DNA from: an uncultured delta proteobacterium
GTDB lineage: Bacteria; Desulfobacterota; Binatia; UBA9968
DNA: 64,000 nucleotides
Assembly (NCBI GenBank): GCA_963771465.1
Contig: CAVYTU010000017.1
Span: 1,024,001-1,088,000 of the forward strand
Reading direction: 5' to 3'
Under the pieces are notes generated by a model. The model had not been told where the DNA came from, did no database searches, and saw nothing but the letters and a program-made list of their open reading frames with translations. Position numbers and translations under genes: made by a program. Shown here in pieces: positions 3,053-53,592 of the stretch. Each line of letters opens with the position of its first letter. Positions within the stretch are counted from its first letter, which is position 1.

Positions 3053-3568
3053 ATGATCGATGCGGCCGTAGTCATTCCTGTCTATCGAACTCGCGATGGC
3101 GAGCTTCACGTCGTGATGATTTTGCGCAATCCCGGCGGCGTGCACGGCGGCCAGATCGCTTTTCCCGGCGGCAAGCACGATCTCGCTGACGAGACGATGT
3201 TAGACACGGCGCTGCGGGAGCTACATGAAGAACTTGGATTGTCATCGGCGCGGGAAGACGTGCTTGCCGAACTGCCCATGGAACAGACGCGCACGACCGG
3301 TTACCGCGTCTTTCCTTATCTGGTGCGGATCACTGTGCCCGAGCAGTGGCAAATCGCCGAGCGCGAGGTCGCCGAGCTGTTCGACGTCAAGCTCAGCGAT
3401 CTTTTGCGCGCCGGCGCCCACGACAAAATGATCGAGCGCTTTCCAACTTGGCAGAAAGCGGAGCAGGTTTCATTTTATCAAATCGGTACCCATCGGCTCT
3501 GGGGCCTTTCGTATCGAATTCTTCATCCCATCATTCCGCGTTTGGCGGCGGGTGAGTGGGCCGTGTGA
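3053..3568 (+). CDS. Nudix hydrolase, CoA pyrophosphatase type
   Basis: HGGQIAFPGGK plus Nudix box TALRELHEELGL; LWG near the C-terminus. Confidence 0.9.
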   Translation: MIDAAVVIPVYRTRDGELHVVMILRNPGGVHGGQIAFPGGKHDLADETMLDTALRELHEELGLSSAREDVLAELPMEQTRTTGYRVFPYLVRITVPEQWQIAEREVAELFDVKLSDLLRAGAHDKMIERFPTWQKAEQVSFYQIGTHRLWGLSYRILHPIIPRLAAGEWAV

Positions 3569-3572
3569 AGTT

Positions 3573-3618
3573 GTGTTCGTGAGTCGTGTTCGTCGGACTG
3601 CAGTCTCGAACACGAAAC
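3573..3618. repeat. Degenerate hexamer-tandem hairpin (CGTGTT/AACACG)
   Basis: gtgttcgtgagtcgtgttcg...cgaacacgaa; same unit as 19040-19104 and 32340-32403. Confidence 0.5.
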
Positions 3619-3686
3619 CATGCGCGTATCGCAAAGAAGTGTTTTTAAATGTCGCAATAGCTTGGTTAGAGGGAAGGAGAATACCA

Positions 3687-4901
3687 ATGGACTTTAGTTT
3701 ACAGCAGGACACGCCTGAGATCGGCGAGTTCCGCCAAGAGGTGCGCAGTTGGCTGGCGGACAATATGAAAGGCAGCGAGCATCTGCGCTGGTCGGGCAAC
3801 TGGTCGACGCGGGAGAATGACGAGGAGTATACGTTTCGCCGCGCATTGGCTGGCAAGTTGGGAAAAAAACGCTGGCTCTTTCCCACTTACCCGGTGAAAT
3901 ATGGGGGCGCCGGTTTGAGCCTCGATCATCAGTTCGTTCTCGAAACCGAAATCGATCGTTATGGTCTATCGCTCGGCTCCGTGTTTTACACCTTAGCGCG
4001 ATTGGTCGCGCCGGCGGTGATGAAATTCGGCACCGAGGAACAGAAGACGGAGTTTTTGCCGCCGATGGCGCGCGGCGAATTGGCGGTGTGGCAAGTTCTC
4101 ACCGAGCCGCAAGGCGGTAGCGACGTGGCCAATTGCCAAACCAAAGCGATTCGCGACGGCGATCACTTTATCGTCAATGGCCAGAAAGTTCTGGTTGGCC
4201 ATCACCTGCCGCCGGATTATCTCTGGACTTTTGTTTGCACCAACCCGGCGGGCAAGCGCCATGAGAATTTAGGTTGGCTTTATATTCCCGCCAACTTGCC
4301 GGGGATCACGTTGCAACACATGCATCTCATGATGGGCATCAAGAATGCGATTTTCTTCGACAACGTTAAAGTGCCGGCGAAATATCTCGTCGGCGGCGAA
4401 AACAACGGCTGGAAAGTGGCGAACAGCTATCTTGAATTAGAGCATGGCGGCGGTGGCAGTGTCGCCGAACAGCCGCTGTTTAAGCGAATCATCGAACATT
4501 GTCAAAAAACTAATTTCGACGGCGAAAGCTTGATGGAAGATCAGGACATCCGCGATGAGGTCGCCGATATGTTGATCGATCTCGACGTGCAGCGGCTGAT
4601 GGGGCTGCGCAACTTCTGGCATCGCTACGTGCGCGAGCCGCATCCGTATGGTGGCCCGCAGTATCTTTACTTCCAGCGCATGGTGCGGCTGCGCAACTCC
4701 GAGAGGGTGCAAAGAATCCTCGGCTACGACGCATTGGTGCCGGACAATTCAGTCCACGAAGTGGCCGATTTCGAATACACGGTACGTAGCGGCCCCGGCT
4801 GGCTTCACGGCGGCGGCACGTTGGATACCGATCGGCTGATCATCGCGCGCCGCTTGGGTCTCGGCCGTCCGGCGCAAGAAGCCGCACCGACTACGGTGTA
4901 G
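3687..4901 (+). CDS. Acyl-CoA dehydrogenase family protein (alpha-like subunit)
   Basis: LTEPQGGSD, VNGQK, FFDNVKVP, GGENNGW; AAGGAG RBS before ATG 3687. Confidence 0.9.
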   Translation: MDFSLQQDTPEIGEFRQEVRSWLADNMKGSEHLRWSGNWSTRENDEEYTFRRALAGKLGKKRWLFPTYPVKYGGAGLSLDHQFVLETEIDRYGLSLGSVFYTLARLVAPAVMKFGTEEQKTEFLPPMARGELAVWQVLTEPQGGSDVANCQTKAIRDGDHFIVNGQKVLVGHHLPPDYLWTFVCTNPAGKRHENLGWLYIPANLPGITLQHMHLMMGIKNAIFFDNVKVPAKYLVGGENNGWKVANSYLELEHGGGGSVAEQPLFKRIIEHCQKTNFDGESLMEDQDIRDEVADMLIDLDVQRLMGLRNFWHRYVREPHPYGGPQYLYFQRMVRLRNSERVQRILGYDALVPDNSVHEVADFEYTVRSGPGWLHGGGTLDTDRLIIARRLGLGRPAQEAAPTTV

Positions 4902-10217: not shown

Positions 10218-10226
10218 TGGGTTAGT

Positions 10227-10268
10227 CGTTCAAAACGTTCAAGCCGTTCAAATAGTTGAAATCGTTTT
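10227..10268. repeat. Half element of nonamer tandem repeats (CGTTCAAnn)
   Basis: cgttcaaaa cgttcaagc cgttcaaat agttgaaat cgtttt; same units as the right arm at 11932-11971. Confidence 0.75.
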
Positions 10269-10292
10269 CACGGTTTATAGTGGAGGATTCTC

Positions 10293-11872
10293 GTGGTTGA
10301 TGGCGAATGGGACGTGATCCTGATCGGCGCGGGGCAAAATAATTTTGCTCTCGGCACTTACCTCGGCAAAGCCGGCTTGAAGACGGTGATTTGCGAGAGT
10401 CGGCTCGAGAACGGTGGACGGCTCGCCAGCGAAGAGATCACTCGGCCCGGTTACTGGCACAACACGCTCGCCTACTTCCAAGACAATCGCGAAGTGTCGC
10501 CGCCTTGGCGCGAGCTCGATTGGGACAACGGCCATCACGCTGAGTTCATTTCGCCGCCGGTGATCAGCTCGTTATTGCTTTCCGATGGCAGCTCGGTGTC
10601 GCAGCATCAGTCGCTGGAGCAGACGGTCACTTCGATCAAGAAAATCTCCACTCGAGATGGCGAAGCTTGGCGCGAAACTCACCATCGCTATTACCAACTG
10701 ATCCGCGATTATCTGATTCCCTACTATTACCAGGCGCCTCAAAGCGGCAAGACAATTTTGCAAAAGCTCGATTTCGCACCGGCGGGTAGAGAGTTCATAC
10801 GCCTTTGGCACATGACGCCGCGCCAAGTGGTGGATGAGCTGTTCGAGGCCGATGCGGTGAAGACGTTGGTACTTTCCCAGATGGCCATTCCGCGCGGCGT
10901 AGGCGTTGATTACGCCGGTGGTGGCATCGAAGTCTTAAAGATGATCGCCGGCGATGAAAGACCCGAGCTGGCGCGCGGCGGCGTCCCATTCCATCGCGCA
11001 AGTGTTGCAGCGCGCCTACGTTCACAACGGCGGGCAGATTCGCGCCGTGCATCACGTTGAAAAAATTTTCGTCAATGACGACGGACGCGCCGTGGGCGTG
11101 CGGTTACGCGACGGCCGCGAGTGGCAAGCGCGCTTGGCGGTGGTTTCCAATAGCGATCCTTATTCCACTTTCGTTGAAATGGTTGGCGAGGATTATCTGC
11201 CGCGGACGTTTGTCGAACGGGTTAAAGACATCCAGGTCGATGAGTTTTCATATTTCCAAGTTCACGTCGCTTTGAAAGCGCCGGTGCGTTACGCGCTTCA
11301 CGAAGCGAACGATCCGTCCGTCGGTCAGGCGATGAACGTGAACATCGGACCCGAGAAGCCATCGGATATTGACGAGCATGTGGCAAGAGATTCGCGCTGG
11401 TGAGTTTCCGGAGCATGCTTGTCTGCATGCGATATGTCCGACCGCGTTCGATCCATTGCAGGCGCCGCGCGGCAAACACGCCGCGTCGGTGTTCATGCCG
11501 GTGCCGTTTCAATTGAAGGGCAAAAAGCCGGAGGATTGGGTCAAGCTCAAGAACGGTTTCATGGACAGCGTTTTGAAAATCTGGCGCCGCTGCGCGACCA
11601 ATCTCACCGATGAGAACATCGAAATGAAAGTAGCCATGGAGCCGCACTATATGTCCGGCCGCTGGCCCAACATGCGCCGCGGTTCGGTCTGGGTGGCGCG
11701 CAAAATTCCGACGCAGATGGGTGAGCAGCGGCCGATCGAACAAATCTCCGACTACCGCACGCCGATCGCGGGACTTTATCAAGTCGGCGCGGCGATGCAT
11801 CCAGCCGATGCGGTCATCGCGGGCTCGGGGTATAACTGCTGGCGGGCGATGAAAGAGGATTTGAAACTTTAG
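10293..11872 (+). CDS. Phytoene-dehydrogenase-like FAD-dependent oxidoreductase (two apparent frameshifts, near 10980 and 11375)
   Basis: Rossmann motif IGAGQNN, FDPLQAPRGKH, YRTPIAGLY, HP...G.GYN; spread over three overlapping ORFs. Confidence 0.8.
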
Positions 11873-11880
11873 TAATCTCT

Positions 11881-11971
11881 GAAACGTTTCGAACGGCTTG
11901 AACGATTGCCACGATTTGAACCACGCCGTCCTTCAAGTCGTTCAAATAGTTCAAAACGTTCAGGCCGTTTC
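11881..11971. repeat. Hairpin element with nonamer-tandem arms (TGAACG/CGTTCA)
   Basis: Left gaaacgtttcgaacggcttgaacgattgccacgatttgaac; right ttcaagtcgttcaaatagttcaaaacgttcaggccgtttc. Confidence 0.8.
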
Positions 11972-11983
11972 GGACCGGATGTT

Positions 11984-13607
11984 ATGGCGAAAATTTTGGA
12001 ATACGACGGCGTTGTCATCGGCGCGGGGCATAACGGCATGATTTGCGCCGGCTATCTGGCCAAGTGCGGCCAGAAGATCATGGTCGTCGAGAAAAATATG
12101 GAAGTCGGCGGCGGGCTCGATTCCCACGAAGACCGCAACTATGCCGGCTTTTGGCATAACATTCATTCCGTATTCCACCGCGGCTTGATGATGCTGCCGT
12201 GGTACAGGGATCTCGAGCTGGAGAACTTCGGCATTCATTACTATCGCCCCGATCCCGGCGTGGTGCATCACTTTATCGACAAGACGTATCTTGGCTGGTT
12301 TTCCGACGTGAAGAAAACCGTCGAGACCATCGAGCGCTTTTCGAAAAAAGACGCCGCGTCCTTCATGGACATCTGGACGCGCTGGCAGCCGGTGGTGCAG
12401 AAAATTGTTTTCACCGAAACCTACGCCGTGCCGCTAGCGTTCGAAGAAAAGAAACCGCTGTTGGAAAAGACGATCGAAGGCCGAGAGTATCTGAAGTATT
12501 TCGACACCACGCCGGAGGAGTTTGTTCTCAAACACTTTGAGCATCCGCGCGTGCGCGCGTTTATCGGCTTCCTTGGCGTGATGCGCGGCTATGAGCTCGA
12601 TGCGCCGCAGACCGGCTACCTGATTCCCGCGATGATCGCCTGGGGCGTCAATCCGCAACTGTGCCGCGGCACGTCGCATGCGTTGGGAGACAATCTGGCG
12701 CACATGATGTCGCATAATCACGTCGACTACATCGAGGCCAATGGCGTCGAACGAATTCTGGTGGAGAAAGGGCAGGCGACCGCGGTCGTATTGGAAGACG
12801 GCACGGTGATCAAGGCGCGCAAGTTCATCGCGTCGAACGTGAATCCGGTCGAAACATTCATCAAGCTGGTGGGGCGAGAAAATTTGGACAAGAAGTTCGC
12901 CGATCTGGCGGACGGATTTCGTTTTTCCAAGACGACGCCAATCTTCGCGACCAATTTAGCTCTAAACGAACGGCCCAAGTACATCACTGAAGAAAAATAT
13001 CCCGAAGTCGCAGCTTCGTTCATGCACATCGTCGGCCTGGATGACTACGAAGACTTGCAAAACCTATTCGAAGATTGCCGCACCGGGCAACTGCCGCGCA
13101 AGCCCTTCATGAACGGCGCGACGCCGTCGTTTCACGATCCGACCCAGGCGCCGCCGGGTAAAGCGACGGCGTTTATGTGGCAATTGATGACGTACAATCT
13201 GTGGGGCAATCCCTTGAACTGGGACAAAGCGCGCGACGATTGGTTTAAAAAGCAACTGGCGGTTTGGCAAAAGTTCGCGCCGAACTTGGACGAGGCTAAT
13301 ATTCTCTCGACCGATTCAACGACGCCGCTCGATATCGAACGTCACGACAAGAATATGTACTGCGGCGACTGGATGGTCGGTGAGTACTCCGGCGATCAAG
13401 CGCTGGAGAACCGGCCGTTCCCCGGTTGGGGACAATATCAGAACGCCCATCGACGGGCTATTCATGTGCGGATCGTCGTGTCATCCCGGCGGCAATATCA
13501 CCGGCGCTCCCGGTTACAACGCGGCGAAAGTGATCGCTGAGTCGCTTGGACTCAAGACGTGGTGGAATCCAGTAGACTTTCGCGAACATCTGAAGGGACT
13601 GAGATGA
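11984..13607 (+). CDS. Phytoene-dehydrogenase-like FAD-dependent oxidoreductase (frameshift near 13440)
   Basis: IGAGHNG, HDPTQAPPGK, TPLD; RTPIDGLFMCGSSCHPGG...GAPGYNAA in the next frame. Confidence 0.87.
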
Positions 13608-13615
13608 AGACTAGT

Positions 13616-13694
13616 TGGAATATTGGAGTAATGGAGTGGTGGAGTGATGGGTCCGGTACCCAATACCCCAGTACTCCAACACTCCATCACTCCA
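13616..13694. repeat. Hairpin element with octamer-tandem arms (TGGAGTnn/nnACTCCA)
   Basis: tggaatat tggagtaa tggagtgg tggagtga tggg ... ccca atacccca gtactcca acactcca tcactcca. Confidence 0.88.
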
Positions 13695-13704
13695 GGGGGC
13701 GGTT

Positions 13705-14449
13705 ATGAGATTGGCTGATCGAGTTGCCATCGTCACCGGCGGCGCGCGCCATATCGGCGCGGCGTATTGCCGACGCTTAGCCGAAGAAGGCGCCGCGGTG
13801 GTCATCGCCGATATACTCGACGGTGAGCCGGTGGCGCAGGAGATTCGGGCGAAAGGTGGCAAAGCGTTGGCGCTCAAAGATCGATGTGTCGAATGAAGAC
13901 GACACAAACCGCATGGCTGCCGAAGCGGTGAAAGCATTCGGCCGGATCGATATCCTCGTCAACAACGCGGCGATCTTCATCAACATCCAACGCCATCCGT
14001 TTTATGAAATCACTGGCGAGGAGTGGGACAAGGTCTCCGCCGTGAATATCAAAGGCCCGTTTCTCTGCGCCAAAGCGGTCTTCCCGCAGATGAAAGAGCA
14101 GAAGAGCGGCAAGATTATCAACATCTCGTCGTCGACCGCGTACTGGGGCACGCCCAACTTTCTCCACTACGTGGCGTCGAAAGCCGCACTTATCGGGATG
14201 ACCCGGTCATTGGCGCGTGAAGTCGGCGCGTACGGCATTTGCGTCAACGCAATCGCACCGGGTTTAGTCGAACACGAAGGGCAGAACGCTCCCAAGGCGC
14301 TCACGGAATTGCAGCTCAAAGAGAGATCCATCAAGCGGCTGCAAACGCCTCAAGATTTAATGGGCACGCTCGTGTTTCTATGTTCGTCTGACAGCGATTT
14401 CATGACGGGGCAATCGATTGTGGTGGATGGCGGAAGTATTTTTCATTGA
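13705..14449 (+). CDS. Short-chain dehydrogenase/reductase (frameshift near 13880)
   Basis: TGGARHIG, NNAA, YxxxK (YVASK), VDGG. Confidence 0.9.
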
Positions 14450-14641
14450 CTATGTCATGGTTTCACATGCCGAACAGTCGCCTGTTCCGCGACGTAAAGA
14501 TTGAGATACAGGCGCGCCTTTGCTGGGAAGGGGAGATTGAGCGAGGGGCGACAGATGCTACTTGAGCAACTGCCTCATGCGATCGGTTGGTTTGACCCCA
14601 TGAAAGTTTGATAGAGGGAGCTTTAGGCGTGTTGGAAATAC

Positions 14642-14665
14642 GCACCGGCTCTTTCGAGCCGGTGC
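14642..14665. terminator. Hairpin 3' of the amidohydrolase gene, probable terminator
   Basis: gcaccggct-ctttcg-agccggtgc perfect 9-bp stem about 10 nt past the corrected stop. Confidence 0.6.
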
Positions 14666-14675
14666 TTCTGACCTC

Positions 14676-15759
14676 TTACTGCACCGGACTCGGCACCGGA
14701 ATGTTGTAAAGCTTGGCGACGTTTTCCCGCACGAGTTTTGCGCGCAACGGGGCGGGAAGATCCCCTAGATCTCGGGCGACGATCTTGACGAGAGTTGGGC
14801 CAGGTCGAGTTGCCATGTGGGAAGTCGTTGGACCACATGCAGTTGTCGGCGCCCCACCAGTTGAGGATATGGCCGCCGACGGCGTCGTTGAAGAAAGTGG
14901 TGTAGATCTGGTTGTGGAAGTATTCGCTCGGCAGTTTCTTGATCGCTAAGCCTTCGCGATTGGCGCCGTGGCGTTTGAAGTAGTAGTCCCACTGCTCCAA
15001 GACAAACGGAATCCAGCCGAGCTCGTTCTCCACTAGGACCACCTTTAGTTTTGGAAAGCGTTCCAACACGCCGGAATAGATCAACTCATAGAGGCTATCG
15101 ACCGACTGAAAGAGTTTCATGTTGACGCTATTGTGCTCCGAAGTCAGGCCGGTTGGGGTATCTTTGAGACCGACCGAACGGCTACGGCTGTAGCCATGGC
15201 CGCTCAAGATGTGCAGGTTCACCGACATGTCGAGGTCCTGAGAGGTGGCCCAGAACTTGTCATAGTGCGACGAGGAGAAAGGCAGTTCCGGCGGCGGCAC
15301 CTGCCAGATCACCGAGCCGCGCATGCCAGCCTTGCGGCAGCGCTCCAGCTCTTTCACGGCGCCGTCGATGTCGTACATCGATAACATCGAAATGCCGATC
15401 AGCCGGTCGGGCGCGGCGCTGCAGTAGTCGATCAGCCAATCGTTGTAAACTCGGCAGCAGGCCCCTTCCAACTCGTGATCGTCGAGGCTCAAGCACTTCA
15501 AACCGTGGGTCGGATAGAGCACTTCGGCGCTGACGCCGTCGGCGGCCATTTCGGCGACGCGCTTGTTCTTGTCCTGCGCACCACCGGGAGTGTCGTTGGG
15601 TCTTTGCCCGCCGAAGTCGGGAGCGCGGTCCTGAAAAGCTTTTGGCAGTTGTTTTTGCCACAGTCCTGCGGGCTCGATGACATGCGAGTCCGACGAGATG
15701 AGAACCTCATCGATGACAGTCTTTGACTCGCGCCCATAGGTTCGTTCGATAATGGCCAT
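14676..15759 (-). CDS. Amidohydrolase family 2 protein (frameshift near 14790)
   Basis: ISSDSHVIEP, EVLYPT, YNDWL, GVLERFPKLK...E, WSNDFPH; corrected end RENVAKLY...VQ*. Confidence 0.88.
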
Positions 15760-15847
15760 GGTTCTGTTTCCTTTTTTGTGCAAATTTTCTGGCTGCTGTT
15801 TATCATTCAATACCTAGTCGCGGGGGCGGGCGCAAGAGGAAGTGGAA

Positions 15848-16382
15848 TAATGGAGAATGGAAAATTGAGAATGGATAATTTTCGGATGGAGATGCCGGGT
15901 TTTTCGCAAATGTTAGGTTGTTTAACTACGATTGTCACCATGGTACGAAGCCAGGAGGAATTCGAATTGAGAATTGAGAGTCGAAAAATGAAAGAGAATG
16001 TCGTCAAAGACAAATCTTTTGATTTCGCGCTGCGGGTAGTTAAGCTGGCGAAATTTCTTGAAGCAAGAAAAGGGAATTTGTTTTGTCTCGGCAAGTGCTT
16101 CGTAGTGGGACGGCGATCGGCGCGTTGGTCAGAGAGGCCGAGCACGCCGAGAGCAAAGCGGATTTCATTCACAAGATGAGCATCGCGCTGAAGGAAGCAA
16201 ACGAAACCTCGTACTGGTTGGAACTACTATACCAAGGCGAGTACATTGACAAAGAAAGCTTTCGAGTCGATCCGCTGCTGATAGCGAAGAGATCATCAAA
16301 TTATTGGTGGCGATCGTAAAAACTTCCAAAGTCTCAAAACGCTCCGAATAATTCTCCATTCTCAATTATCCATTATCCATTA
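15848..16382. mobile_element. Putative element: four-helix-bundle gene enclosed by ~40-bp inverted arms of heptamer tandem repeats
   Basis: Left taatggagaatggaaaattgagaatggataattttcgga (15848-15886); reverse complement of right arm (16343-16382) is taatggataatggataattgagaatggagaattattcgga. Confidence 0.75.
15988..16351 (+). CDS. Four-helix-bundle protein (23S rRNA intervening-sequence protein family, Avd-like fold); two apparent frameshifts
   Basis: KDKSFDFALRVVKL, LSRQVLRSGTAIGALVREAEHAESKADFIHKMSIALKEANETSYWLELL, EEIIKLLVAIVKT; the stop lies inside the right arm. Confidence 0.88.
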
Positions 16383-17827
16383 TGCCAAAGTCGCTTCGTA
16401 CGTTTCTCGATGATATGCGCGGGGCATACCCGAGCGAGGTCGTGTCGATTTCCAAGACCGTCAATCCGCTCACTTATGATATTACTGCAATCGTCAAGCA
16501 GCTCGGCGCGCTGAAGAAATTTCCCGTACTGATCTTCGAGCATCCGCTCAATGCTCACGGCCAGGCTACCGACATGAAAGTGGTCATGAGCGCGGAGAAC
16601 TCGCAGAAAAAGATTCAAGTCGCTCTCGGCGTGCCGGCGGACATGGATCGCGCCGAGATGGCGCGCGAGTGCTTGCGCCGCGAGGCGAGCAAGATCGGGC
16701 CGATGATTGTCAGTAAAGACGCGGCGCCGGTGAAAGAGATTATCCGCACCGGCGATCAGGTCGATCTCTATGAGTTGCCGTTGCTCAAGCACCACGAGAT
16801 GGACGGCGGGCCTTATATCGATATGTCGAGCGTCGCCAAAGATCGCGCCAGCGGCGTTTACAATTGCTCGTATCATCGGATGGAAGTGAAAGACCGCAAT
16901 CACACCGGGTTTCTGATGAGCTTGCAACATACGTGGCGCGTCTTTCGCGGTTACGAAGAGGTCGGCGAGGAATGTCCCGTCGCGACCGTGATCGGCCATC
17001 ATCCGGCCTATCAAATGGGCGCGTGTTACGGCGGGCCGTTCGAGATCAGCGAATACGATATCATCGGCGGCTATATGCAGGAGCCGTTGCGCTTAACGCC
17101 TTCTGAAACATGGGGCGAGCGCTTGCTCGTGCCTGCGGACGCAGAGATCGTCATCGAAGGAGCCTTGCTGCCGGGAAAACGAATGGTCGAAGGACCATTC
17201 GGTGAAGTGAACGGTTATCTCGGCGTGCAAGGCTACCAGCAATCGGCGCACTACGAAGTGCGCGCGATCACCCGGCGGCGCGGCGCGCTGCACACGTCGA
17301 TCCTCACACCCGAAGGGGACAAGCCGTGGATGGACTTGGCGCGGGAAGGCGCGTATTTGCGGCGCGCGCGCGAGGCTGTGCCCAATGTGCTGGCGGTGTG
17401 CGCCAGCGGCCGTCATGCGCTGCTGAATGTTTTTATTTCGATGAAAAAAATGTCGGAAGGCGATCCCGGCCGCGCCGCCGCGGCGGTGCTGACGTGGGAC
17501 TGGTGCAAGAACGTTTTTGTCTTCGATGAAGACATTAACGTCTATGATCCGACCGAAATTCTCTGGGCCGTCGCCACCCGAGTGCAGCCGCACCTGCAAG
17601 TTTCGATCATCAAAGAAATCATGCGCGGCAGCTTGATCGATCCATCGATGGTCGACGCGCGCAAGACCTCGGCAATGATCGTCGACGCCACCAAACCGCT
17701 CGACCGGCCATTTTCGCCGGTGTCGAAGTGTCCCGACGAAGCGCTAGCGCGGATTCGCCTCGAAGACTTCGTGCCTGGCGAAGTGTTGCAGCATATTCCC
17801 ATCGACCGGACGACTTACTGGGCGTAA
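16382..17827 (+). CDS. UbiD family (prFMN-dependent) decarboxylase
   Basis: DLYELP, DGGPYI, N...HR, VPADAEIVIEG, EGPFGE, DEDI, WAVATR, IVDATKP. Confidence 0.92.
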   Translation: MPKSLRTFLDDMRGAYPSEVVSISKTVNPLTYDITAIVKQLGALKKFPVLIFEHPLNAHGQATDMKVVMSAENSQKKIQVALGVPADMDRAEMARECLRREASKIGPMIVSKDAAPVKEIIRTGDQVDLYELPLLKHHEMDGGPYIDMSSVAKDRASGVYNCSYHRMEVKDRNHTGFLMSLQHTWRVFRGYEEVGEECPVATVIGHHPAYQMGACYGGPFEISEYDIIGGYMQEPLRLTPSETWGERLLVPADAEIVIEGALLPGKRMVEGPFGEVNGYLGVQGYQQSAHYEVRAITRRRGALHTSILTPEGDKPWMDLAREGAYLRRAREAVPNVLAVCASGRHALLNVFISMKKMSEGDPGRAAAAVLTWDWCKNVFVFDEDINVYDPTEILWAVATRVQPHLQVSIIKEIMRGSLIDPSMVDARKTSAMIVDATKPLDRPFSPVSKCPDEALARIRLEDFVPGEVLQHIPIDRTTYWA

Positions 17828-17994: not shown

Positions 17995-18972
17995 ATGTCC
18001 GGAATCTTCATCAGCTATCGCCGCGAAGACAGCGCGCCTTACGCCGGACGGTTGTACGACCGATTGTGCGGGCGCTTCGGCGCGGATCAAGTTTTCATGG
18101 ACGTCGACGACATTCCACCGGGAGCGGATTTTGCCGCGCATATCGGCGCCAAAGTCGGCTCCTGCGAGGCGATGATCGTCGTCATTGGCCACGAATGGTT
18201 GACCGCGCGCAATGGCGATGGGCAACTGCGCTTGAGCGATCCGCAGGATTTTGTCGGCCTGGAGGTGGCGCTGGCGCTGCAGCGCGACGGCATGGTGATC
18301 CCGGTGCTCGTCGGCGGCGCAAGCATGCCCAAAGCGGCCGAGCTGCGCAGCGACTTAAAGGCGCTGGCCAAGCGCAACGCCGTAATCCTCAGCGATCATG
18401 AATTTCAACGCGATGTCGATTCATTAGTTAAAGCGCTGGAATTGATCCCTAGCCTCGGCAAGAAGCCGGTGAACGAGAGCAACGATTGGAAGGTCGAGAT
18501 GCGTCAGCGGCTGCGCCGGCGGCTGGTCTGGAAGCTGCCGCTGATCGTATCGTTGGTATCGTTTGCGATCTGGTGGCAGTGGCGGATTAACTCGGAGGTC
18601 ATAGTGCCCACACCACACGCAGGGATCGCGGCGAAAACGGCCGCGGCGGTCGCTGGCACTTGGAGCGGCGAAGTCACCTATCCGTGGGGCGCGAAATACA
18701 CCGAACAGTTTTTCTTTCAGCCGGAAGGCGACAGCCTTTTCGGCACGGCGATGTTTCTCCAGTCCAAGCGTGGCATCGAGAACGGCAAGGTTATCGGCGA
18801 TACGATTTCGTTCCAGGTGCGATTCGAAGAGGTGAACGACGGTACGACCAGGACCCGTTGGAACCGCTACGAAGGAAAACTTGCGGGCGCGGAAATTCGC
18901 TTGAAGATACTCGACGACAAAGGCAATCCGCCCGTGGAAATCGCCTTGACTAGGGCCCGAGCAACTCTCTAA
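17995..18972 (+). CDS. TIR domain protein with one transmembrane helix and a C-terminal beta-rich domain
   Basis: IFISYRREDS...FMDVD.I.PG.DF, DFV.LEV..AL, VIPVLV; TM LPLIVSLVSFAIWW; perfect TATAAT at 17945-17950. Confidence 0.88.
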   Translation: MSGIFISYRREDSAPYAGRLYDRLCGRFGADQVFMDVDDIPPGADFAAHIGAKVGSCEAMIVVIGHEWLTARNGDGQLRLSDPQDFVGLEVALALQRDGMVIPVLVGGASMPKAAELRSDLKALAKRNAVILSDHEFQRDVDSLVKALELIPSLGKKPVNESNDWKVEMRQRLRRRLVWKLPLIVSLVSFAIWWQWRINSEVIVPTPHAGIAAKTAAAVAGTWSGEVTYPWGAKYTEQFFFQPEGDSLFGTAMFLQSKRGIENGKVIGDTISFQVRFEEVNDGTTRTRWNRYEGKLAGAEIRLKILDDKGNPPVEIALTRARATL

Positions 18973-45534: not shown

Positions 45535-46525
45535 TTGAAAAGAACGATTGTTCTCTTCGTAGTTACATTCTTGCTTCTGGCGATTATCCATCCAGGTCAT
45601 GCGCAGCAGTCCGGGAAAATCTTCCGCATCGGTTTCCTGGATAGAAGCACTGCTTCCGGTAACGCGGTCCTCGTGAAGGCGTTCCTGCAAGAGCTGAGCA
45701 AGCTTGGATGGATTGAGGGAAAGAATTTCACCATCGAGTACCGGTTTGGGGAGGCAAAAGCCTGAGCGCCGGCCTGAGCTTGCGGCGGACTTGGTTCGTC
45801 TTAAGGTCGATCTGATCGTGGTCTACAGGGACGCGCCGGCGACAGCGGCGAAGAACGCGACTACTACCATACCCATCGTGATGGCGAACGTTGGGGACCC
45901 TGTGGGTGAAGGTCTGGTTGCCAGTCTGGCGCGGCCAGGAGGCAATGTCACCGGTTTCTCGAGTTTAGCGCCCGAGCTAAATACCAAAAGGCTAGAGATA
46001 CTCAAGGACGCGGTCCCTAAGCTCCTGCGAGTTGGACTTCTGCGGTTGGGGGTAGGCGCCATAGCAGCAGACCTCCAACTGAAAGAGCTCAGACCTGCGG
46101 CTTGGCACCTGAAGCTCAAATTGGAGGAGATCGAGACTCAAGTCGACGCCAAAGGTTTAGAGAGCGCCTTTAAAACCGCAAAGCAGAAACAGGTCGGGCG
46201 ATTATGACGACCGCCACTCGCCGCTTTTTCGCCGAAAGAAAGCGGATCGTCGAGCTTGCCGGCAAATACCGGTTGCCTGCTATTTACTTCGCAGAAGGGG
46301 TATGTCGATGAGGGCGGCCTCATGTCCTACGGGGCGGACTACGATGACATGTACCGCAAGGCCGCCCACTACGTAGACAAAATTCTCAAGGGAACGAAAC
46401 CTGCTGATCTGCCTGTACAGCAGGCGACGAAGTTTGAATTCGTCATTAACCTCAAGGCGGCGAAACAAATCGGTCACACGATTCCGTACGAACTGTTGGC
46501 GCGGGCGAATCAAGTGATCAAGTGA
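45535..46525 (+). pseudogene. ABC_sub_bind (PF04392-type) substrate-binding protein with about three frameshifts; pseudogene or sequence error
   Basis: LGWIEGKN..IEYR, TTTIPIVM...DPV..GLVASLARPGGNVTG, GGLMSYG, VDKILKG.KPADLPV.Q.TKFE.VINLK.AK.IG. Confidence 0.7.
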
Positions 46526-46630: not shown

Positions 46631-48875
46631 GTGGCTTATCGCACCATAGGTAAAACACTGCCGCGCGTCGAAGGGTACGGCAAAGTAACGGGGCAAACCA
46701 AGTACGCGGCGGATTTGCCGTTTGAAGGTTTGCTCTGGGCTAAAGTGCTGCGCGCTTCGCTGCCGCACGCGCGCATCGTTAAAGTCGATACTTCGAAGGC
46801 CAAGGCGTTGAAGGGCGTCCGCGCTGTCCTGACTGGCGCGGATGTGAAGGACATCTTCGTCGGCACTCGGCTGAAAGATCAGCCGGTATTAGCATACGAC
46901 AAGGTGCGCATGAGCGGCGACGCCGTCGCGGCGGTAGCGGCGGACGATGAAGCGATCGCCGAGGAAGCGATTGGTATGATCGACGTCGAATACGAGGCGT
47001 TGCCGTACGTCGAGGACCCGGTGGAAGCGCTCAAGCCGAGCGCGCCGCTGATCCATGAGGACCGCGGCGAAATACAGAAATGCCGCGAAGCTGCCGGAAG
47101 GCATGTCCGGTCATAATTTACAGTCCTATGTGCAGTGGAAGAACGGCGACGTTGACGCCGGCTTCGCTAAGGCAGCGAGAGTTTTCGAACACACTTTTCG
47201 CACGCCGCTGTCGCACCACGGCTATCTTGAGCCTTGCGCTTGCACCGTGCAGATTCACGCCGATGGGCGCGTTGAAGTTTGGCCTTCGAATAAGGGTCCG
47301 TGGGGCTTGCGCGAGCAGATGTCGGAAGACTTCGGCGTGCCCCAGGAAAAGATCAAGATTCACATCGTTCACGTCGGCGGCGACTTCGGCGCCAAGGCGT
47401 CTTTGATCGACGTGCCGGTCGCTTACTATTTGTCCAAAGCCGCGGGCGGCAAGCCGGTCAAGCTGGTGTTCGATTATACCGATGAACTTCTCGCCGGCGG
47501 CCACCGCCATCCCTCGGTGATCACTTTAAAAACCGGCGTTGCCGCTGACGGAACACTGCTCGCTGTGAGAGGCGATATCTACTTCAGCGGCGGCGCTTAT
47601 GGTTCGCAAAAGGCCAATCCCCAAGCAACGGTTCTCGGCGGGCGGCGCTTGGCGAGCATGTATCGCTGTCCGGCCATCGATGTGCGGACGTTTTGTTCGT
47701 ACACCAATCAAGTGCCGTGTACCCAGACGCGCACGCCGGGCAGCCCGCAGGTCGTCTTCGCCTTCGAATCGCAAATGGACATCATCGCCAAGGAAATGGG
47801 CATCGATGCGCTCGAATTGCGCCGAAAAAATATTCTCCACGACGGCGACGCCAATCCCATGGGCGAAAAGTGGAGTGATATTCTAATGGGCGAAGTGTTG
47901 GAGCGCATCGTTAAAACCTCCGGTTGGAAAAAAGGCGGCGCGAAGAAAAATCACGGTTGGGGCATGGCGCTCTATGATCGCGGCACGCCGGAAGGAAAAG
48001 CCAGTTCGGCGTTGATTTTGGAAGCCGATGGCAAAGTCAATATTCTCACCGGCGTGCCGGATGTTGGTCCTGGATATTACACCGTCAGCCAGCAGATGGT
48101 TTGCGAGACGCTCGGTCTGGCGCCGGAAAAAGTCGGTGTGGTTTTCAAAGACACCGACAGCTTGCCGTTTGATCCTGGCACCGGCGGGAGCAAACAAACC
48201 AATACTTCAGGTCACGCAGTGAATCTATCGGCGCGCGAGGTGCGCGAGATACTGGTCAACTTGGCGGCGCGGGAATTGGGTTGTCAGCCGGAGGAAGTTC
48301 AGCAGCAGGATGGCAAGCTGACCGCACCCAATAAGAAATCGACGACCACCGAGAATATGATCAAGCTTGCGGTAAAAGAAAACGGCGGTCCGGTTTTTCA
48401 CCTGACTAATTTTGTGCCGAAAGACATGCCAAAGGTCACTGGCTTCGCCGCCCAAGTAGCTGAAGTCGAAGTCGACCCGACCACCGGCGGAGTGACGGTA
48501 TTGAATTTGACCACGGCGCACGACACCGGGACCGTGCTCAATCATCTAACACTCACCGGGCAGATCGAAGGCGGCATCGTCACCGGCTTCGGTTTCGCGA
48601 CGATGGAGGAGAATCCGATGATCGACGGCAAGATCGCGACACTAACATTGGGCGAGTCCAAGATGCCGTGCATCGCTGACGTGCCGCCATTGAAGACGGT
48701 TCTCGTCGAAAGTCCCACGGGCCCGACGCCTTACGGCGGCAAAGCGATCGCGGAGAATCCTAACGTGCCGACGGCGGCGGCGATCTCGAATGCCATCGCC
48801 GACGCCTGCGGCGTGCGGCTTTTCGAGTTGCCGCTGTCAGCAGAGAAAATCTATCGCGCAATGAATCGAAAATAG
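46631..48875 (+). CDS. Xanthine dehydrogenase family molybdopterin-binding subunit (frameshift near 47070)
   Basis: KVTG...YAAD, S..PHARI, H.YLEP, GGDFGAK, EVEVDP.TG, GQIEGG, KAIAE. Confidence 0.9.
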
Positions 48876-50043: not shown

Positions 50044-51264
50044 ATGGTGACATTTAGTATTTTAGATTTTCGATTTTGGATTTTGGATTGGGGAATCAGG
50101 CGGATCGGTCGGAGCTTCTCCGACAATCTAAAATCCAAAATCCAAAATCTAAAATGGGTAGGGCTGGCTGCAACTTGGTTTGTGGCAGCGACTCTGCATG
50201 CCGCAGAGCCTGCAAAATGGCAGGCCGAATGGGAACGCACGGTGTCGGCGGCGGAGAAGGAAGGACAGCTGGTTGTCTATATCGGTGGCTATGGCGCGCT
50301 TATCGAGAGCGGCGTATTTCAGAAGGCCTATCCGAAGATCAAGATCACGCACATCACCGGCGCGGGCACCGATCTCACGCAGCGTATTTCAGCGGAGCGG
50401 CGCGCCGGCAAGTATCTCGCCGACGTCTACAACGGCGGTGGCAACTCGCTTCATCAGGTTCTCTACACCGGAAAGATGATCGACTCGATCAAGTCGGCGT
50501 TGATCCTGCCGGAAGTATTGGACACGGCCAAATGGTGGGAGGGCAAACACAAATACGCCGACAAAGAGGGCCAACATATTTTCGTTTACGAAGGCAATGT
50601 GTCGGCCGGCGCCGGGGCAGGTTACAATACCCAGCTGCTCGATCCGCGCGAGTACAAAACTTATTGGGACTTCCTCAACCCCAAGCTCAAGGGAAAACTT
50701 ATTTCCACCGATATTCGCCGGGTGCGCGGCGCCGGCATCCCGTGGCAGTTTCTCTATTATCATCCCGATCTCGGCCCGAAATATTTGCGCCGTCTGTTTG
50801 GCGAGATGGATGTGACGATGAGCGCCGATCTGCGCCAGGCTGGAGACTGGCTGGCGACGGGAAAGTTCACTCTTTGCATGCCGATCCAAGGCGGTGTTGT
50901 CAGTAAGGCGAAGAGTCAGGGCTTGCCTGTGGACCAATTCGATTCTTACCACTTCAAGGAAGGCGTCAATCTTTCATCCGCCTTCGGTTCGCTGGCGTTG
51001 ATGAACCGCGCGCCCCATCCCAATGCCGCCAAGGTGTTTATCAATTGGCTATTGTCGCGCGAAGGGCAGACGTTGTTCCAAAAAGTGATTAGTCTAACCG
51101 GCGATCCGCGCAACTCGCGCCGTATCGACGTCCCCAAAGACCACATCCCGGTCGATGAACAGCGGCGCGACAAAATGACCTATTTCGACACCGACGATCC
51201 CGACACCAAGGATTTGACGCCGGCAATGAAATTGTTGGACGAGATCGTGCCGCTAAAAAAATAG
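50044..51264 (+). CDS. Extracellular solute-binding protein with a repeat-derived N-terminus
   Basis: W....AAEKEG.L, APHPNAAKVFINWLLSREGQ, NSRRIDVPKD. Confidence 0.87.
   Translation: MVTFSILDFRFWILDWGIRRIGRSFSDNLKSKIQNLKWVGLAATWFVAATLHAAEPAKWQAEWERTVSAAEKEGQLVVYIGGYGALIESGVFQKAYPKIKITHITGAGTDLTQRISAERRAGKYLADVYNGGGNSLHQVLYTGKMIDSIKSALILPEVLDTAKWWEGKHKYADKEGQHIFVYEGNVSAGAGAGYNTQLLDPREYKTYWDFLNPKLKGKLISTDIRRVRGAGIPWQFLYYHPDLGPKYLRRLFGEMDVTMSADLRQAGDWLATGKFTLCMPIQGGVVSKAKSQGLPVDQFDSYHFKEGVNLSSAFGSLALMNRAPHPNAAKVFINWLLSREGQTLFQKVISLTGDPRNSRRIDVPKDHIPVDEQRRDKMTYFDTDDPDTKDLTPAMKLLDEIVPLKK
50059..50155. repeat. Hairpin element with heptamer-tandem arms (TTTTGGA/TCCAAAA) inside a CDS
   Basis: a-ttttaga-ttttcga-ttttgga-ttttgga-ttg ... 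caa-tctaaaa-tccaaaa-tccaaaa-tctaaaa-t; 32-bp arms with 2 mismatches. Confidence 0.9.
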
Positions 51265-51307
51265 CGATGGGGATCGCCAGCGATCCTTTCGCTCCTGGGA
51301 AAGCGAG

Positions 51308-52462
51308 ATGAAGACGGCGAAGTTCATGCTTGGAATCGTTCGCTGCGGCGTAGCTGTTTCGGCGGCCATCGTATATTTCATGCTGGCCGCGGTTAGCTAT
51401 GCGGCCGATGCCAAGCCGGCGCAGCCGAATTGGGAAAAAACCCTCGCCGCGGCGAAGAAGGAAGGGCGGCTTAACTTATACGTCGGTCGCTACGGCACCG
51501 AGCCGCTGCTCAATGAGTTCCGCAAAGAGTTTCCCGAAATCAAGATCGTTTCAGTCAACGGCACCGGCAATTCTTTAGGCACGCGAATCATCACCGAGAT
51601 GCGCGCCAACAACGTCGTCGCCGATCTATTCAGCGGCGGCGCCAACACGAATCACGAGGTGCTTTACGAAGGCAAGGCGCTCGATTCGATAAAGTCAGCA
51701 TTGATCCTGCCGGAGGTGCTCGACGAGAGTAAGTGGTATGAAGGACGGCACCGTTACACTGATTCGGAGCAACGCCATATCTTTGTCTACATCGCCAATC
51801 CGACGTCATCCGGTTTTTACTACAATACCACGCTAGTCAATCCGAAAGAGACCAACTCTTTTTGGGATCTGGTGGCGGCCAAGTGGAAAGGTAAATATGT
51901 ATCCCAGGATCCCATGGGCACCGGGCTTGGCGGCGGGCTCCAGTTCATGTACTACCATCCCGAGCTTGGACCGGAATTTATCAAGCGGCTGTTCGGCGAC
52001 ATGCAGCCGACCTTTGGACGCGATCGAAGGCAAATTACCGACTGGCTGGCGCAGGGGCGCTACGCGCTCTGTCTCGGCTGCCGCGACACGGCGCGGGCAA
52101 AATCGCAGGGTCTGCCGGTGGATGAGTTCGATAACCTCAACTGGAAAGAAGGAGCGGAGCTGACCACGGGCGGCGGCACCATGAGCTTGATCAAGGGTGG
52201 ACCCAATCCCAATGCGGCAAGAGTTTTCATCAACTGGTTTCTCTCCCGCCGCGGCCAGATTGCGCTGCAGAAATATAGCGACCTTTACGGCGAAGATCCG
52301 CCCAACTCGCGGCGCATCGATATACCCAAAGAGATGCTCCCGGCCGTTAACCGTTTGCATGCCGACAGAAAATACTTCGATGTCTCCGATCCCAAGTACG
52401 CCGACATGACGCCGATCGTTGATCTGGTCAAGCAAGTGATGAAAGGGCGTGAAGTAAAATGA
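51308..52462 (+). CDS. Extracellular solute-binding protein (tandem paralog 1)
   Basis: Signal peptide, AAAKKEGRL, PNPNAA.VFINWFLSRRGQ. Confidence 0.9.
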   Translation: MKTAKFMLGIVRCGVAVSAAIVYFMLAAVSYAADAKPAQPNWEKTLAAAKKEGRLNLYVGRYGTEPLLNEFRKEFPEIKIVSVNGTGNSLGTRIITEMRANNVVADLFSGGANTNHEVLYEGKALDSIKSALILPEVLDESKWYEGRHRYTDSEQRHIFVYIANPTSSGFYYNTTLVNPKETNSFWDLVAAKWKGKYVSQDPMGTGLGGGLQFMYYHPELGPEFIKRLFGDMQPTFGRDRRQITDWLAQGRYALCLGCRDTARAKSQGLPVDEFDNLNWKEGAELTTGGGTMSLIKGGPNPNAARVFINWFLSRRGQIALQKYSDLYGEDPPNSRRIDIPKEMLPAVNRLHADRKYFDVSDPKYADMTPIVDLVKQVMKGREVK

Positions 52463-53592
52463 TCTCGAACGCGCTCTTGAGCGTCGTTTTGCTATTCGGC
52501 GGTTTCGTCTGGGTGGCGCCCGGCTCGGCTGCGGACGCCAAGCCGGCTTGGCAGCTGACCTGGGAGAAAACCGTCGCCGCGGCGAAGAAAGAAGGACGGT
52601 TAAATTTCTACGTCGGGCGCTACGGCAGCGAGCCGCTGCTCAATGAGTTCCGCAAAGAATTTCCCGAGATCAAGATCGTCACGGTTAACGGCGCCGGCAA
52701 CTCACTGGGTACGCGCATCGTGTCGGAGGCGCGCGCGGGCGCGGTGGTCGCCGATCTTTACAGCGGCGGCGCGGTAACCAATTTCGAGATCCTTTACAAA
52801 GGCAAGGTGCTCGATTCGCTCAAGGCGGCGTTGATCCTGCCGGAGGTGCTCGACGAGTCGAAATGGTACGGCGGCAAGCACCGCTATAACGATCCGGAAC
52901 AAGAGCATGTATTCATCTACATCGCCAATCCGACCTCGGCGAGCATTTATTACAACACCAGCTTGGTCAATCCCAAAGATTTCAAATCCTTTTGGGATCT
53001 AGTCCAGCCCAAATGGAAAGGCAAATTCGTCTCCCAGGAGCCCACCGGCACGGGTATCGGTCCGTCGTTGCAGTTTTTCTTTTATCATCCGGAGCTCGGG
53101 CCGGAGTTTTTGCGCAAGCTATTCGTCGATCAGCAGCCGGTCTATTCACGAGACCGGCGCCAGATGACCGACTGGCTGGCGCAGGGGAAATTTGCCTTGT
53201 GCATGGGCTGTCGCGATTCCGAAAAAGCCAATAAGCAGGGACTGCCAGTGAATGACATGGACATGGTCGATTGGAAGGAAGGGGCGCATGTTTCCTCCGG
53301 CGGCGGTTCCATGAGCTTGATCAAGGGCGGACCGCACCCCAATGCCGCCAAGTTATTTATCAACTGGTTTTTAACCCGCCGCGGCCAGATCGCGCTGCAA
53401 AAATACGAAGATCTTTATAACGAGGAGCCGCCCAACTCGCGGCGCATCGATATACCCAAAGACATGTTGCCGGCCAGCAGCCGGCTGGTGGATGGCAGGC
53501 GGTATTTCGACTTCTCCGATCCGAAGTATTCCGATATGACGCCGATCTTTCAGTTGGCCAAGGAATTTATGAAGGGGCGTGAAACAAAATGA
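52459..53592 (+). CDS. Extracellular solute-binding protein (tandem paralog 2)
   Basis: Same family; ATGA overlap with the previous gene. Confidence 0.9.
   Translation: MISNALLSVVLLFGGFVWVAPGSAADAKPAWQLTWEKTVAAAKKEGRLNFYVGRYGSEPLLNEFRKEFPEIKIVTVNGAGNSLGTRIVSEARAGAVVADLYSGGAVTNFEILYKGKVLDSLKAALILPEVLDESKWYGGKHRYNDPEQEHVFIYIANPTSASIYYNTSLVNPKDFKSFWDLVQPKWKGKFVSQEPTGTGIGPSLQFFFYHPELGPEFLRKLFVDQQPVYSRDRRQMTDWLAQGKFALCMGCRDSEKANKQGLPVNDMDMVDWKEGAHVSSGGGSMSLIKGGPHPNAAKLFINWFLTRRGQIALQKYEDLYNEEPPNSRRIDIPKDMLPASSRLVDGRRYFDFSDPKYSDMTPIFQLAKEFMKGRETK

Follow-up and report, generated by a model that had tools for sequence, protein, structure and literature searches.

A four-helix-bundle gene between inverted heptamer arrays in a ubiD leader: a member of a widespread family of cassettes

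In this work, we describe a small genetic element found in a stretch of 64,000 nucleotides from an uncultured delta proteobacterium of the Binatia lineage (GenBank assembly GCA_963771465.1, contig CAVYTU010000017.1, positions 1,024,001 to 1,088,000, hereafter the window, numbered from its first letter). The element, listed with other features in Table 1, consists of a gene of the PF05635/TIGR02436 family, encoding a four-helix-bundle (4HB) protein, bracketed by two inverted arrays of tandem 7-nt repeats, and lies in the leader of ubiD. It is a genuine member of a widespread, apparently undescribed family of cassettes. By analogy with homologous systems, it appears rather probable that these cassettes are promoterless and depend on host transcription, that their arms form a long stem providing an RNase III site, and that their pentameric protein reads the heptamers.

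A repeat search of the window identified two inverted arms of 38 nt, at 15843-15880 and 16350-16387, 89% complementary and separated by 469 nt, which make up the longest inverted repeat of the whole 64 kb among arms lying no more than 1500 nt apart. Gapped local alignment lengthens them to 15843-15886 and 16343-16387, with one indel and a score of 63; at 1620 random positions, taken with identical geometry, the median score was 17.5 and the maximum 43. Both arms have a period of 7, as detected by Tandem Repeats Finder (TRF), with 4.4 copies at 15849-15879 and 4.7 at 16351-16383, the outer left one being composed of the heptamers GGAGAAT, GGAAAAT, TGAGAAT and GGATAAT. A further tandem of 2.3 GAATTGA copies, found by TRF at 15964-15979, leads into the ATG of the 4HB gene at 15988, and both the 4HB stop codon (16349-16351) and the ubiD ATG (16382-16384) fall within the right arm. 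GC content inside the element ranges from 0.40 to 0.52, compared with 0.52-0.64 in the flanks. The inverted arms, the additional tandem before the ATG, the stop codon within the right arm and the AT-richer interior had all been proposed in a first-pass annotation of the same DNA, and each of them was borne out; the TA dinucleotides also noticed there at both outer ends have no visible meaning, as complementarity continues for 5 nt past them.

In the two closest relatives of the window copy, L001 and L002, the left array abuts the ATG, and the 77-nt spacer found here between outer and proximal heptamers probably represents inserted sequence splitting the left array. Separation by at least 40 nt between the best-scoring left arm and the ATG is observed in 15 of the 68 elements with arms (see below).

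From its middle frame alone, the window gene matches both PF05635 (4e-18, 66 bits, cut-off 33.8) and TIGR02436 (3.5e-19, 69 bits, cut-off 24), in agreement with the initial assignment to the four-helix-bundle proteins of intervening sequences (IVP-like). Intact relatives are 120 aa long, and residues 27-92 of the window protein (66 residues) are 100% identical to one of them, P0001. An intact frame of about 120 aa is not found in the window gene: three-frame translation and DNA alignment with the two closest intact loci revealed three 1-nt indels, one deletion (around 16055-16075) and two insertions (close to 16264 and to 16276), where only two frameshifts had been counted at first. Since the three genes preceding the element (for an FAD oxidoreductase, a short-chain dehydrogenase/reductase and an amidohydrolase) are frameshifted too, each continuing in another frame (11906-15810), error-prone assembly, and not gene decay, is the most likely source of the three indels, and the pseudogene look of the window gene is probably an assembly artefact.

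When the RNA of 15820-16410 is folded, the inverted repeats at the two ends build a long enclosing stem, as in intervening sequences (IVSs) of ribosomal RNA, and this stem is kept in both the minimum free energy (MFE) and the centroid structure (-200.6 kcal/mol, z -4.6); none of 100 shuffled sequences folds as well. A scan of the window element for consensus promoters and terminators, in itself uninformative, returned no terminator and one weak promoter-like match inside the left arm.

Relatives were collected by a genome scan with P0001 as query; the best 80 by similarity, out of at least 367 confirmed matches, correspond to 79 loci and 83 copies. These loci are spread over about 10 phyla, including Bacteroidota, Chlorobiota, Nitrospirota, Thermodesulfobacteriota, Chloroflexota, Pseudomonadota, Fidelibacterota, Omnitrophota, Elusimicrobiota and Kiritimatiellota. 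Arms could be scored in 81 copies, the window one included, three others being too near a contig end. Complementarity between the two flanks lies above the 99th percentile of the controls in 68 of the 81 copies and above the 95th in 75, with a median score of 36 compared with 17.5 in the controls. The arms are almost always tandem heptamers, as self-identity at lag 7 reaches 0.51 in upstream and 0.53 in downstream arms, compared with 0.27 at random positions, and in the sampled subfamily the unit takes the form G-N-N-A-R-T-K. Between the left array and the ATG there are mostly 0-20 nt, while the right array begins at or near the stop codon. In 61 of the elements with arms (68 in all), the MFE fold has no less than half of the left arm paired with its right counterpart, a figure partly produced by construction, as the arms are complementary.

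A further sample, independent of the first and more distant, was obtained from 31 plasmid records carrying the gene, 15 of which, at 37-54% identity, were analyzed. Arms are present in 13 of the 15, including Nostoc plasmids, and are built of units as diverse as CCAGTGA, GATTAGT, GGAGGTC, CAATTCG, TAATTCG, AATCCCC/AATCGTA, GATGAAK, CAGTGAT and GATTTTA. What is constant across samples is the period of 7 and the inverted layout, while the unit sequence varies. The first-pass annotation had proposed to look for such arms around homologues, and most copies of both samples carry them. The protein family as a whole is large, 10,886 clusters at 50% identity matching P0001 (E up to 1e-3), and rare in phages, with 2 of 50,697 records. 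One copy close to that of the window, at 5001-5363 of L004 (Nitrospira, 75% identity to the window gene), features no arms and lies 23 nt from each neighbour in an operon with hsdS and an SLFN-ATPase gene; it may be a cassette that lost the stem and kept the gene.

Genomic localization highlights a strong preference for the sense orientation. Neighbouring genes, identified with a simple ORF (open reading frame) caller in the 81 copies and recorded as upstream and downstream strand relative to the cassette, are (+,+) in 62, (+,-) in 8, (-,+) in 4, including the window, and (-,-) in 2, with contig ends in the remaining 5; in the plasmid annotations the figures are 10 for (+,+), 3 for (-,+) and 2 for (-,-). 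The fit with the host genes is often flush. Of 57 upstream stop codons, 32 fall within the left arm and 13 more lie no more than 15 nt before it (45/57); of 58 first possible downstream start codons, 23 are within the right arm and another 23 no more than 20 nt past it (46/58). Therefore, in the folded RNA, the upstream cistron's end would come to meet the downstream cistron's start at the base of the stem. The idea of an intervening sequence of messenger RNA, put forward in the first-pass annotation, is in part supported, as it fits both the sense bias, 62 (+,+) against 2 (-,-), and the precedent of the rRNA IVS of Coxiella. In the window itself, the upstream Amidohydro_2 neighbour is divergent, and the cassette thus sits in the ubiD leader, and not between co-directional genes.

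The only two cassettes antisense to both neighbours, at 4882-5435 of L033 and 4930-5413 of L074, have arms among the longest: 68 nt with a score of 116 in L033, where the ORF is cut to 94 aa, and 58 nt with a score of 81 in L074. Overlapping stop-start motifs occur in left arms at 0.65 per unit, compared with 0.33 in unit-permuted nulls; stop codons covering every frame show no enrichment (44 of 68, null mean 39). The heptamers cannot in general be regarded as frame-independent tracks for stop/start coupling, as the cyanobacterial units CAATTCG and GGAGGTC contain no such motifs.

Flanking genes were scanned for domains in 59 elements, 21 others, mostly orthologous repeats or elements with opposite-strand neighbours, being left out for size. 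By our reading of the scan, 27 of the 59 lie in type I or III restriction-modification (R-M) or defence-helicase operons. Other junctions involve ABC ATPase/permease, lepA/lepB, guaA/glmS, murA/hisG, mevalonate-pathway genes, hipS-/hipT-like genes (L007 and L018) and two histidine kinases; among plasmids, cassettes are found between csx2 and cas1 and between the genes of an RND adaptor and a permease. The cassettes of L089 and L090 lie beside cas1/cas2. In L044 (1889-5393), three cassettes share one type I R-M operon, in the order hsdM, 4HB, RhuM, 4HB, hsdS, 4HB, hsdR; a DNA identity of 97% between two of them indicates that one was recently duplicated to a neighbouring junction.

Some of these data would suit a domesticated host regulator, in which the stem hides the downstream start and the 4HB protein made from the loop binds the repeats and opens or stabilises it, resulting in delayed or feedback expression of genes such as those of an R-M restriction subunit or ubiD. 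In the 46 elements mentioned above and in the window, the downstream start is located within the right arm or close to it; expression timing matters in R-M and defence-helicase operons; and strong purifying selection, long vertical retention and a conserved unit, described below, are what a regulator would show. Against such a role, cassettes are found between genes of unrelated function (ABC transporter, lepA/lepB, guaA/glmS, mevalonate pathway, two-component kinases), some operons, like that of L044, contain three copies, and the same cassette also occurs inside rRNA; junction variety and rRNA occurrence fit an opportunistic insert better than a dedicated regulator, and we regard the latter as unlikely.

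Two pairs of within-operon duplicates, at 97% and 94% nucleotide identity, help in defining the unit of inheritance: in both, homology starts within the left array, ends within the right one and goes no further. No target-site duplication is recognizable at the duplicates, where homology fades inside the arrays. As to the earlier description of the window feature as a candidate autonomous element, gene and arms do form one unit, as indicated by the recurrent architecture and by the array-to-array duplicates; autonomy finds no support, since no catalytic function is encoded and no target duplication is seen.

An element mobile at the DNA level would read the arrays as subterminal binding sites, like those of transposons with several sites for end binding, the 4HB protein as a DNA-binding mobilisation factor recruiting host recombination or replication, and the hairpins as similar to miniature inverted-repeat transposable elements (MITEs). 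Inverted terminal arrays and duplicates bounded by them agree with this, as do closely related copies at unrelated junctions in different families (L025 and L045, for example, share 85% nucleotide identity), protein clades crossing phyla, gene-free hairpins with a matching unit nearby, and arm mismatches that are uncompensated and without G:U bias. However, no nuclease, recombinase or transposase is encoded by the element, and none is found in the window; no target-site duplication is recognizable; elements persist at the same junction across species; and the family is rare in phages. A 62:2 sense bias and a flush fit with host stop and start codons are unexpected for a DNA transposon. Such an element is therefore rather unlikely.

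The 4HB proteins are under purifying selection, with a median ratio of nonsynonymous to synonymous rates (dN/dS) of 0.116 and a maximum of 0.33 in 104 pairs. The type of unit follows the protein tree, requiring 17 changes compared with 31-41 in 300 label shuffles, and protein clades with a single unit span several phyla. In the GTTAAT clade, composed of 31 copies, dS is above 1 or undefined in 458 of 465 pairs and identity at third codon positions is 0.49, while left arms, compared in 325 pairs, keep 94% identity in their consensus unit. Since the unit is conserved beyond synonymous saturation, the repeat sequence itself, and not merely the complementarity of the arms, is selected. As the unit differs between clades, its reader should also differ between clades; the 4HB protein, the only clade-specific component in sight, is thus the likely reader, as far as sequences can indicate. 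For elements at the same junction, approximately unbiased (AU) tests do not reject monophyly (p 0.81 and 0.61). Replacement of one cassette by another at a fixed junction is, on these same tests, unsupported. Constrained trees beat the quick free tree, so that the deep branches of the protein tree are not trustworthy.

Heptamer arrays are not confined to the flanks of 4HB genes. In 743 kb, 284 period-7 arrays were found, about 280-fold more than the single one remaining after local shuffling: 182 of them adjoin 4HB genes and 102 lie away from them. Many of the latter are short-loop hairpins built of the unit of the local cassette, such as those at 3172-3241 in L001, 3226-3310 in L006 and 6725-6824 in L059. 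The gene-free periodic hairpins described in the first-pass annotation are therefore real and widespread, five of them being present in the window (z from -3.2 to -6.8) and others in the loci of relatives. The GATTTTN unit of the window hairpin at 50053-50155 is shared with a Gloeocapsa plasmid (L094), where it builds the arms flanking the 4HB gene. In some cassettes (L008, L059 and L066), the left array is separated from the ATG by one more complete hairpin, a layout in which the ORF is flanked by two direct copies of the antisense-type array; recombination between the direct copies, we infer, would drop the ORF and leave a gene-free hairpin.

In all of the 15 periodic short-loop hairpins passing a strict threshold, the G-rich arm comes first. 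This order cannot be used as a sign of the direction of transcription, an inverted repeat being identical from both strands, and only shows a handedness in common with the cassette arms. The cassettes of two cyanobacterial plasmids, at 1448-1864 of L089 and 1380-1886 of L090, have the opposite handedness, with the pyrimidine-rich array first, in contrast to the other periodic hairpins checked, which are G-rich first.

The abundance of gene-free periodic hairpins, in the window as in related loci, might suggest that ordinary intergenic hairpins, working as stabilisers or terminators, simply happen to flank an unrelated small gene; cyanobacterial short tandemly repeated repetitive (STRR) sequences are indeed presented without any gene in the available text of PMC2670836. 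A chance association is very improbable, however, as nearly two thirds of all period-7 arrays (the 182 of 284) adjoin 4HB genes, arms are found in 68 of 81 and 13 of 15 copies in the two samples, the unit type tracks the protein tree and no terminator-like site was found at the window element.

Overall, these observations can be accommodated in the following mechanism. A gene of about 120 codons for a 4HB protein, bracketed by inverted, clade-specific 7-nt arrays and inserted in the sense orientation in a host transcript, here the ubiD leader, would be transcribed with its host; in the RNA the arms would pair into a stem of 35-45 bp, looping out the ORF. Joining the upstream stop to the downstream start, the stem would make the insertion tolerated and keep expression of the flanking cistrons coupled. 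It is also a predicted substrate of RNase III, like its counterpart in the homologous IVSs of 23S rRNA, and the RNA of the cassette would then be cut out. The pentameric protein would bind the 7-nt repeats of its own cassette and of the matching gene-free hairpins, putative ORF-less derivatives or landing sites, and in this way may control stem formation, cleavage or translation of the 4HB gene.

Several observations weigh against this mechanism. The 319 mismatches found in 2410 aligned arm columns show no G:U bias (68 vs 72 per strand) and cluster, uncompensated, at the K position, which is degenerate; selection may thus act on the repeat motif more than on perfect pairing, and a role at the DNA level is conceivable. 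Convincing arms are missing in 13 of the 81 scored copies, and the 4HB protein can accordingly persist without a stem. Only 2 independent contrasts bear on co-evolution of protein and unit, and clade-specific units are explained by co-inheritance alone; for elements found at the same junction, simple vertical inheritance may be enough. The 79 loci come from one sample, the best 80 by similarity of at least 367 matches. The window copy is itself atypical, having a divergent upstream neighbour and a left array split by 77 nt. Finally, the IVS protein of Coxiella is described as probably not made, in the portion of PMC4990558 available. On a separate question, which strand is the RNA one could not be read from G:U-compatible mismatches, as the two counts, 68 and 72 of 319, are unbiased.

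A broader reading, which as a whole we consider doubtful, would extend the mechanism to all IVS proteins. These would read 7-nt arrays in a sequence-specific manner, and together with the arrays would make up universal cassettes dwelling in transcripts, of mRNA and rRNA alike; a stem under control of the protein would decide whether the flanking cistrons are coupled, occluded or separated by RNase III. The STRR sequences, the periodic hairpins of this genome and the ORF-bearing rRNA IVSs would all be manifestations of a single system, in which hairpin families are served in trans by the cognate 4HB clade, and in R-M operons the cassette would work as a timer.

Independently of this extension, the cassettes provide a concrete context for the large family of IVS proteins, namely enclosure by clade-specific heptamers, sense location between cistrons and a selected unit. 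They link three puzzles so far treated separately: ORF-bearing rRNA IVSs, STRR hairpins, and four-helix-bundle genes in R-M and CRISPR loci. The mechanism predicts a code of protein-RNA recognition, with one subunit per 7 nt. For genome annotation, it should be considered that cassettes interrupt operons without breaking them, and that their arms may be mistaken for CRISPR-like or other arrays.

Table 1. Features of the 4HB cassette, its neighbours and the gene-free periodic hairpins, in window coordinates
Feature	Position	Strand	Basis
Outer left arm, about 5 tandem heptamers of G-N-N-A-R-T-K type	15843..15886	+	Pairs with 16343-16387 in MFE and centroid folds
Non-repeat spacer, 77 nt, from outer arm to proximal heptamers	15887..15963	+	Comparison with L001 and L002
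Proximal heptamers, GAATTGA x2.3, up to the start codon	15964..15987	+	Usual place of the left array in relatives
4HB gene, PF05635/TIGR02436, with one 1-nt deletion and two 1-nt insertions	15988..16351	+	Profiles, alignment
Right arm, inverted heptamer array, holding 4HB stop and ubiD start	16343..16387	+	Repeats, fold
ubiD, UbiD-family decarboxylase, downstream host gene, start within the stem	16382..17827	+	Profile match
Amidohydro_2 family gene, upstream divergent host gene, frameshifted near its 3' end	14623..15810	-	Profile match
Gene-free hairpin, heptamer arms, TGAGNNN units	86..189		Fold z -6.8
Gene-free hairpin, octamer arms (TGGAGTNN)	13616..13694		Fold z -3.2
Gene-free hairpin, arms of 7-8-nt units (GTTCAAG), directly past the ubiD stop	17835..17905		Fold z -4.1
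Gene-free hairpin, hexamer arms (CGTGNN)	19038..19105		Fold z -3.3
Gene-free hairpin, heptamer arms, GATTTTN units	50053..50155		Fold z -6.3

Other features of the window are worth reporting. The MutS encoded in it is closest to proteins labelled Deltaproteobacteria MAG (87%) and Candidatus Binatia (77%), which makes a Binatia-like uncultured lineage of soil the probable source. Arrays of a unit of about 9 nt (CGTTCAA-type) are found in intergenic position at 10226-10270 and 11884-11966, 1.7 kb apart, the second preceded by complementary units, so that a hairpin is possible; they bracket two ORFs with no Pfam match, at 10293-11057 (+) and 11225-11800 (-), and the pair could be another cassette-like unit with a different cargo. 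A strong hairpin of unlike design, not periodic, is located at 59495-59598 (40-nt arms, 78% complementary, z -5.4), between the genes of a luciferase-like monooxygenase and of a solute-binding protein. Directly downstream of ubiD, and between two periodic hairpins, lies the gene of a TIR-domain protein (PF13676) with an uncharacterised C-terminal half, at 17995-18972. The heptamer hairpin at 50053-50155 precedes the first of four tandem paralogous genes for solute-binding proteins (SBP_bac_1/8), at 50044-54719. As to gene integrity, frameshifts break many genes of housekeeping type, at 46631-48872, 3552-4898 and 45704-46204 as well as at 11906-15810: one xanthine-dehydrogenase-like gene is divided between two ORFs that overlap, and profile matches are only partial for an acyl-CoA dehydrogenase and an ABC substrate-binding protein; the assembly looks indel-prone.

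Comparison with known systems may start from those which the window does not contain. Rfam searches found no rRNA or other family in the window at the gathering threshold and, with E values of up to 1, none for the element, and the 56 window ORFs scanned show no domain of a reverse transcriptase, transposase or integrase; the lack of rRNA, reverse transcriptase and transposase remarked upon in the first-pass annotation is thus confirmed. Window repeats include no template/variable repeat pair, and PADLOC and PHROGs gave no match.

The structure of Avd, the accessory protein of diversity-generating retroelements (DGRs), is a pentamer. The closest solved homologues of the 4HB protein, 2rld (E 3e-43) and 2gsc, have 5 chains each, and the paper on 2gsc speaks in its title of 'five four-helix bundles'. 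According to PMC10053308, PF05635 proteins resemble Avd and are common beside DGR reverse transcriptases. A related four-helix-bundle fold and a pentameric assembly are thus features in common with Avd; a nucleic-acid-binding role of the 4HB protein is plausible. The same resemblance would be explained if the window gene were the Avd gene of a DGR remnant. This is extremely improbable, as the window has neither reverse transcriptase nor template/variable repeat pair, a reverse transcriptase domain is found in 0 of the 110 flanking ORFs scanned in relatives, neither PADLOC nor PHROGs matched, and the sequence profile of the family retrieves 2rld and 2gsc, but not Avd, from the PDB. The cassettes differ from Avd and its retroelements in having no reverse transcriptase and no template/variable repeat pair, and no match to Avd was found at the sequence level.

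The 4HB domain has been encountered elsewhere: it occurs in rRNA insertions of bacteria of the Candidate Phyla Radiation (CPR), where the available text of PMC11270868 called it functionally uncharacterized in 2024, and it is among the CRISPR-array-linked domains of a published screen, as far as the accessible part of PMC10910872 goes. No paper describing 4HB genes within inverted heptamer arrays in operons was found, subscription literature and database family notes lying outside the search.

Cyanobacterial STRR sequences, in the description available from PMC2670836, are 7-bp tandem repeats forming hairpins between the genes of operons, with function unknown and with transcript stability or translational coupling as proposals. 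The element likewise has tandem 7-nt units in intergenic position and capable of forming a hairpin, and the gene-free hairpins of the window and of related loci have the STRR design. In that description, however, STRRs have no protein gene and are limited to cyanobacteria, whereas cassette arrays bracket 4HB genes in about 10 phyla. All this points to the 4HB gene as the missing partner of STRR hairpins.

Other mobile or repeated elements share single traits with the cassettes. The Correia/nemis elements of Neisseria and the ERIC sequences are intergenic inverted-repeat MITEs, co-transcribed with their neighbours, whose transcripts form hairpins cut by RNase III, changing the expression of flanking genes; they are not known to carry an ORF or periodic arms, or to occur outside a few genera. 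The cassettes, in contrast, carry both an ORF and periodic arms. Integron cassettes are promoterless single-gene units, inserted in the sense orientation, transcribed by the host and provided with a structured recombination site, but have a single attC and need an integrase, while 4HB cassettes have two symmetric inverted arrays, with no integrase in the window. Terminal inverted repeats, as in DNA transposons and MITEs, are present in the element, with no transposase in the window and no target-site duplication seen. The element is thus not a DGR, an integron cassette or a recognizable transposon.

The closest parallel is found in the ORF-bearing IVSs of 23S rRNA, such as those of Coxiella burnetii and Leptospira. 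As reported in the text of PMC4990558 available, the Coxiella burnetii IVS, in helix 45, is 428 nt long, with an ORF of the PF05635 family and a terminal stem of 28 bp; RNase III cuts midway along the stem, the 5' cut falling at the first heptamer, and tandem GACAGAT heptamers, in strain-variable copy number, directly precede the ATG. For its authors, the heptamers were a curiosity of that locus and the ORF was in decay. Cassettes and IVSs have in common the protein family, an ORF looped out by a long terminal stem, sense location in a host transcript and, for the Coxiella type, tandem heptamers directly upstream of the ATG, as seen in the window at 15964-15987 and 15843-15886. They differ in three ways: heptamers are described in Coxiella, in the same text, on the 5' side only, while the cassettes have them in both arms; the Coxiella ORF is reported there as decaying and unexpressed, while cassette proteins are under purifying selection; and the host transcript of the cassettes is an mRNA leader or operon spacer, not rRNA. 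The window element does not lie in helix 9, 25 or 45 of a 23S rRNA gene, its flanks being protein-coding and no rRNA being present in the window. It is, in conclusion, an IVS architecture of the rRNA type placed in mRNA and, since it lies outside rRNA, a variant rather than a member of the IVS class.

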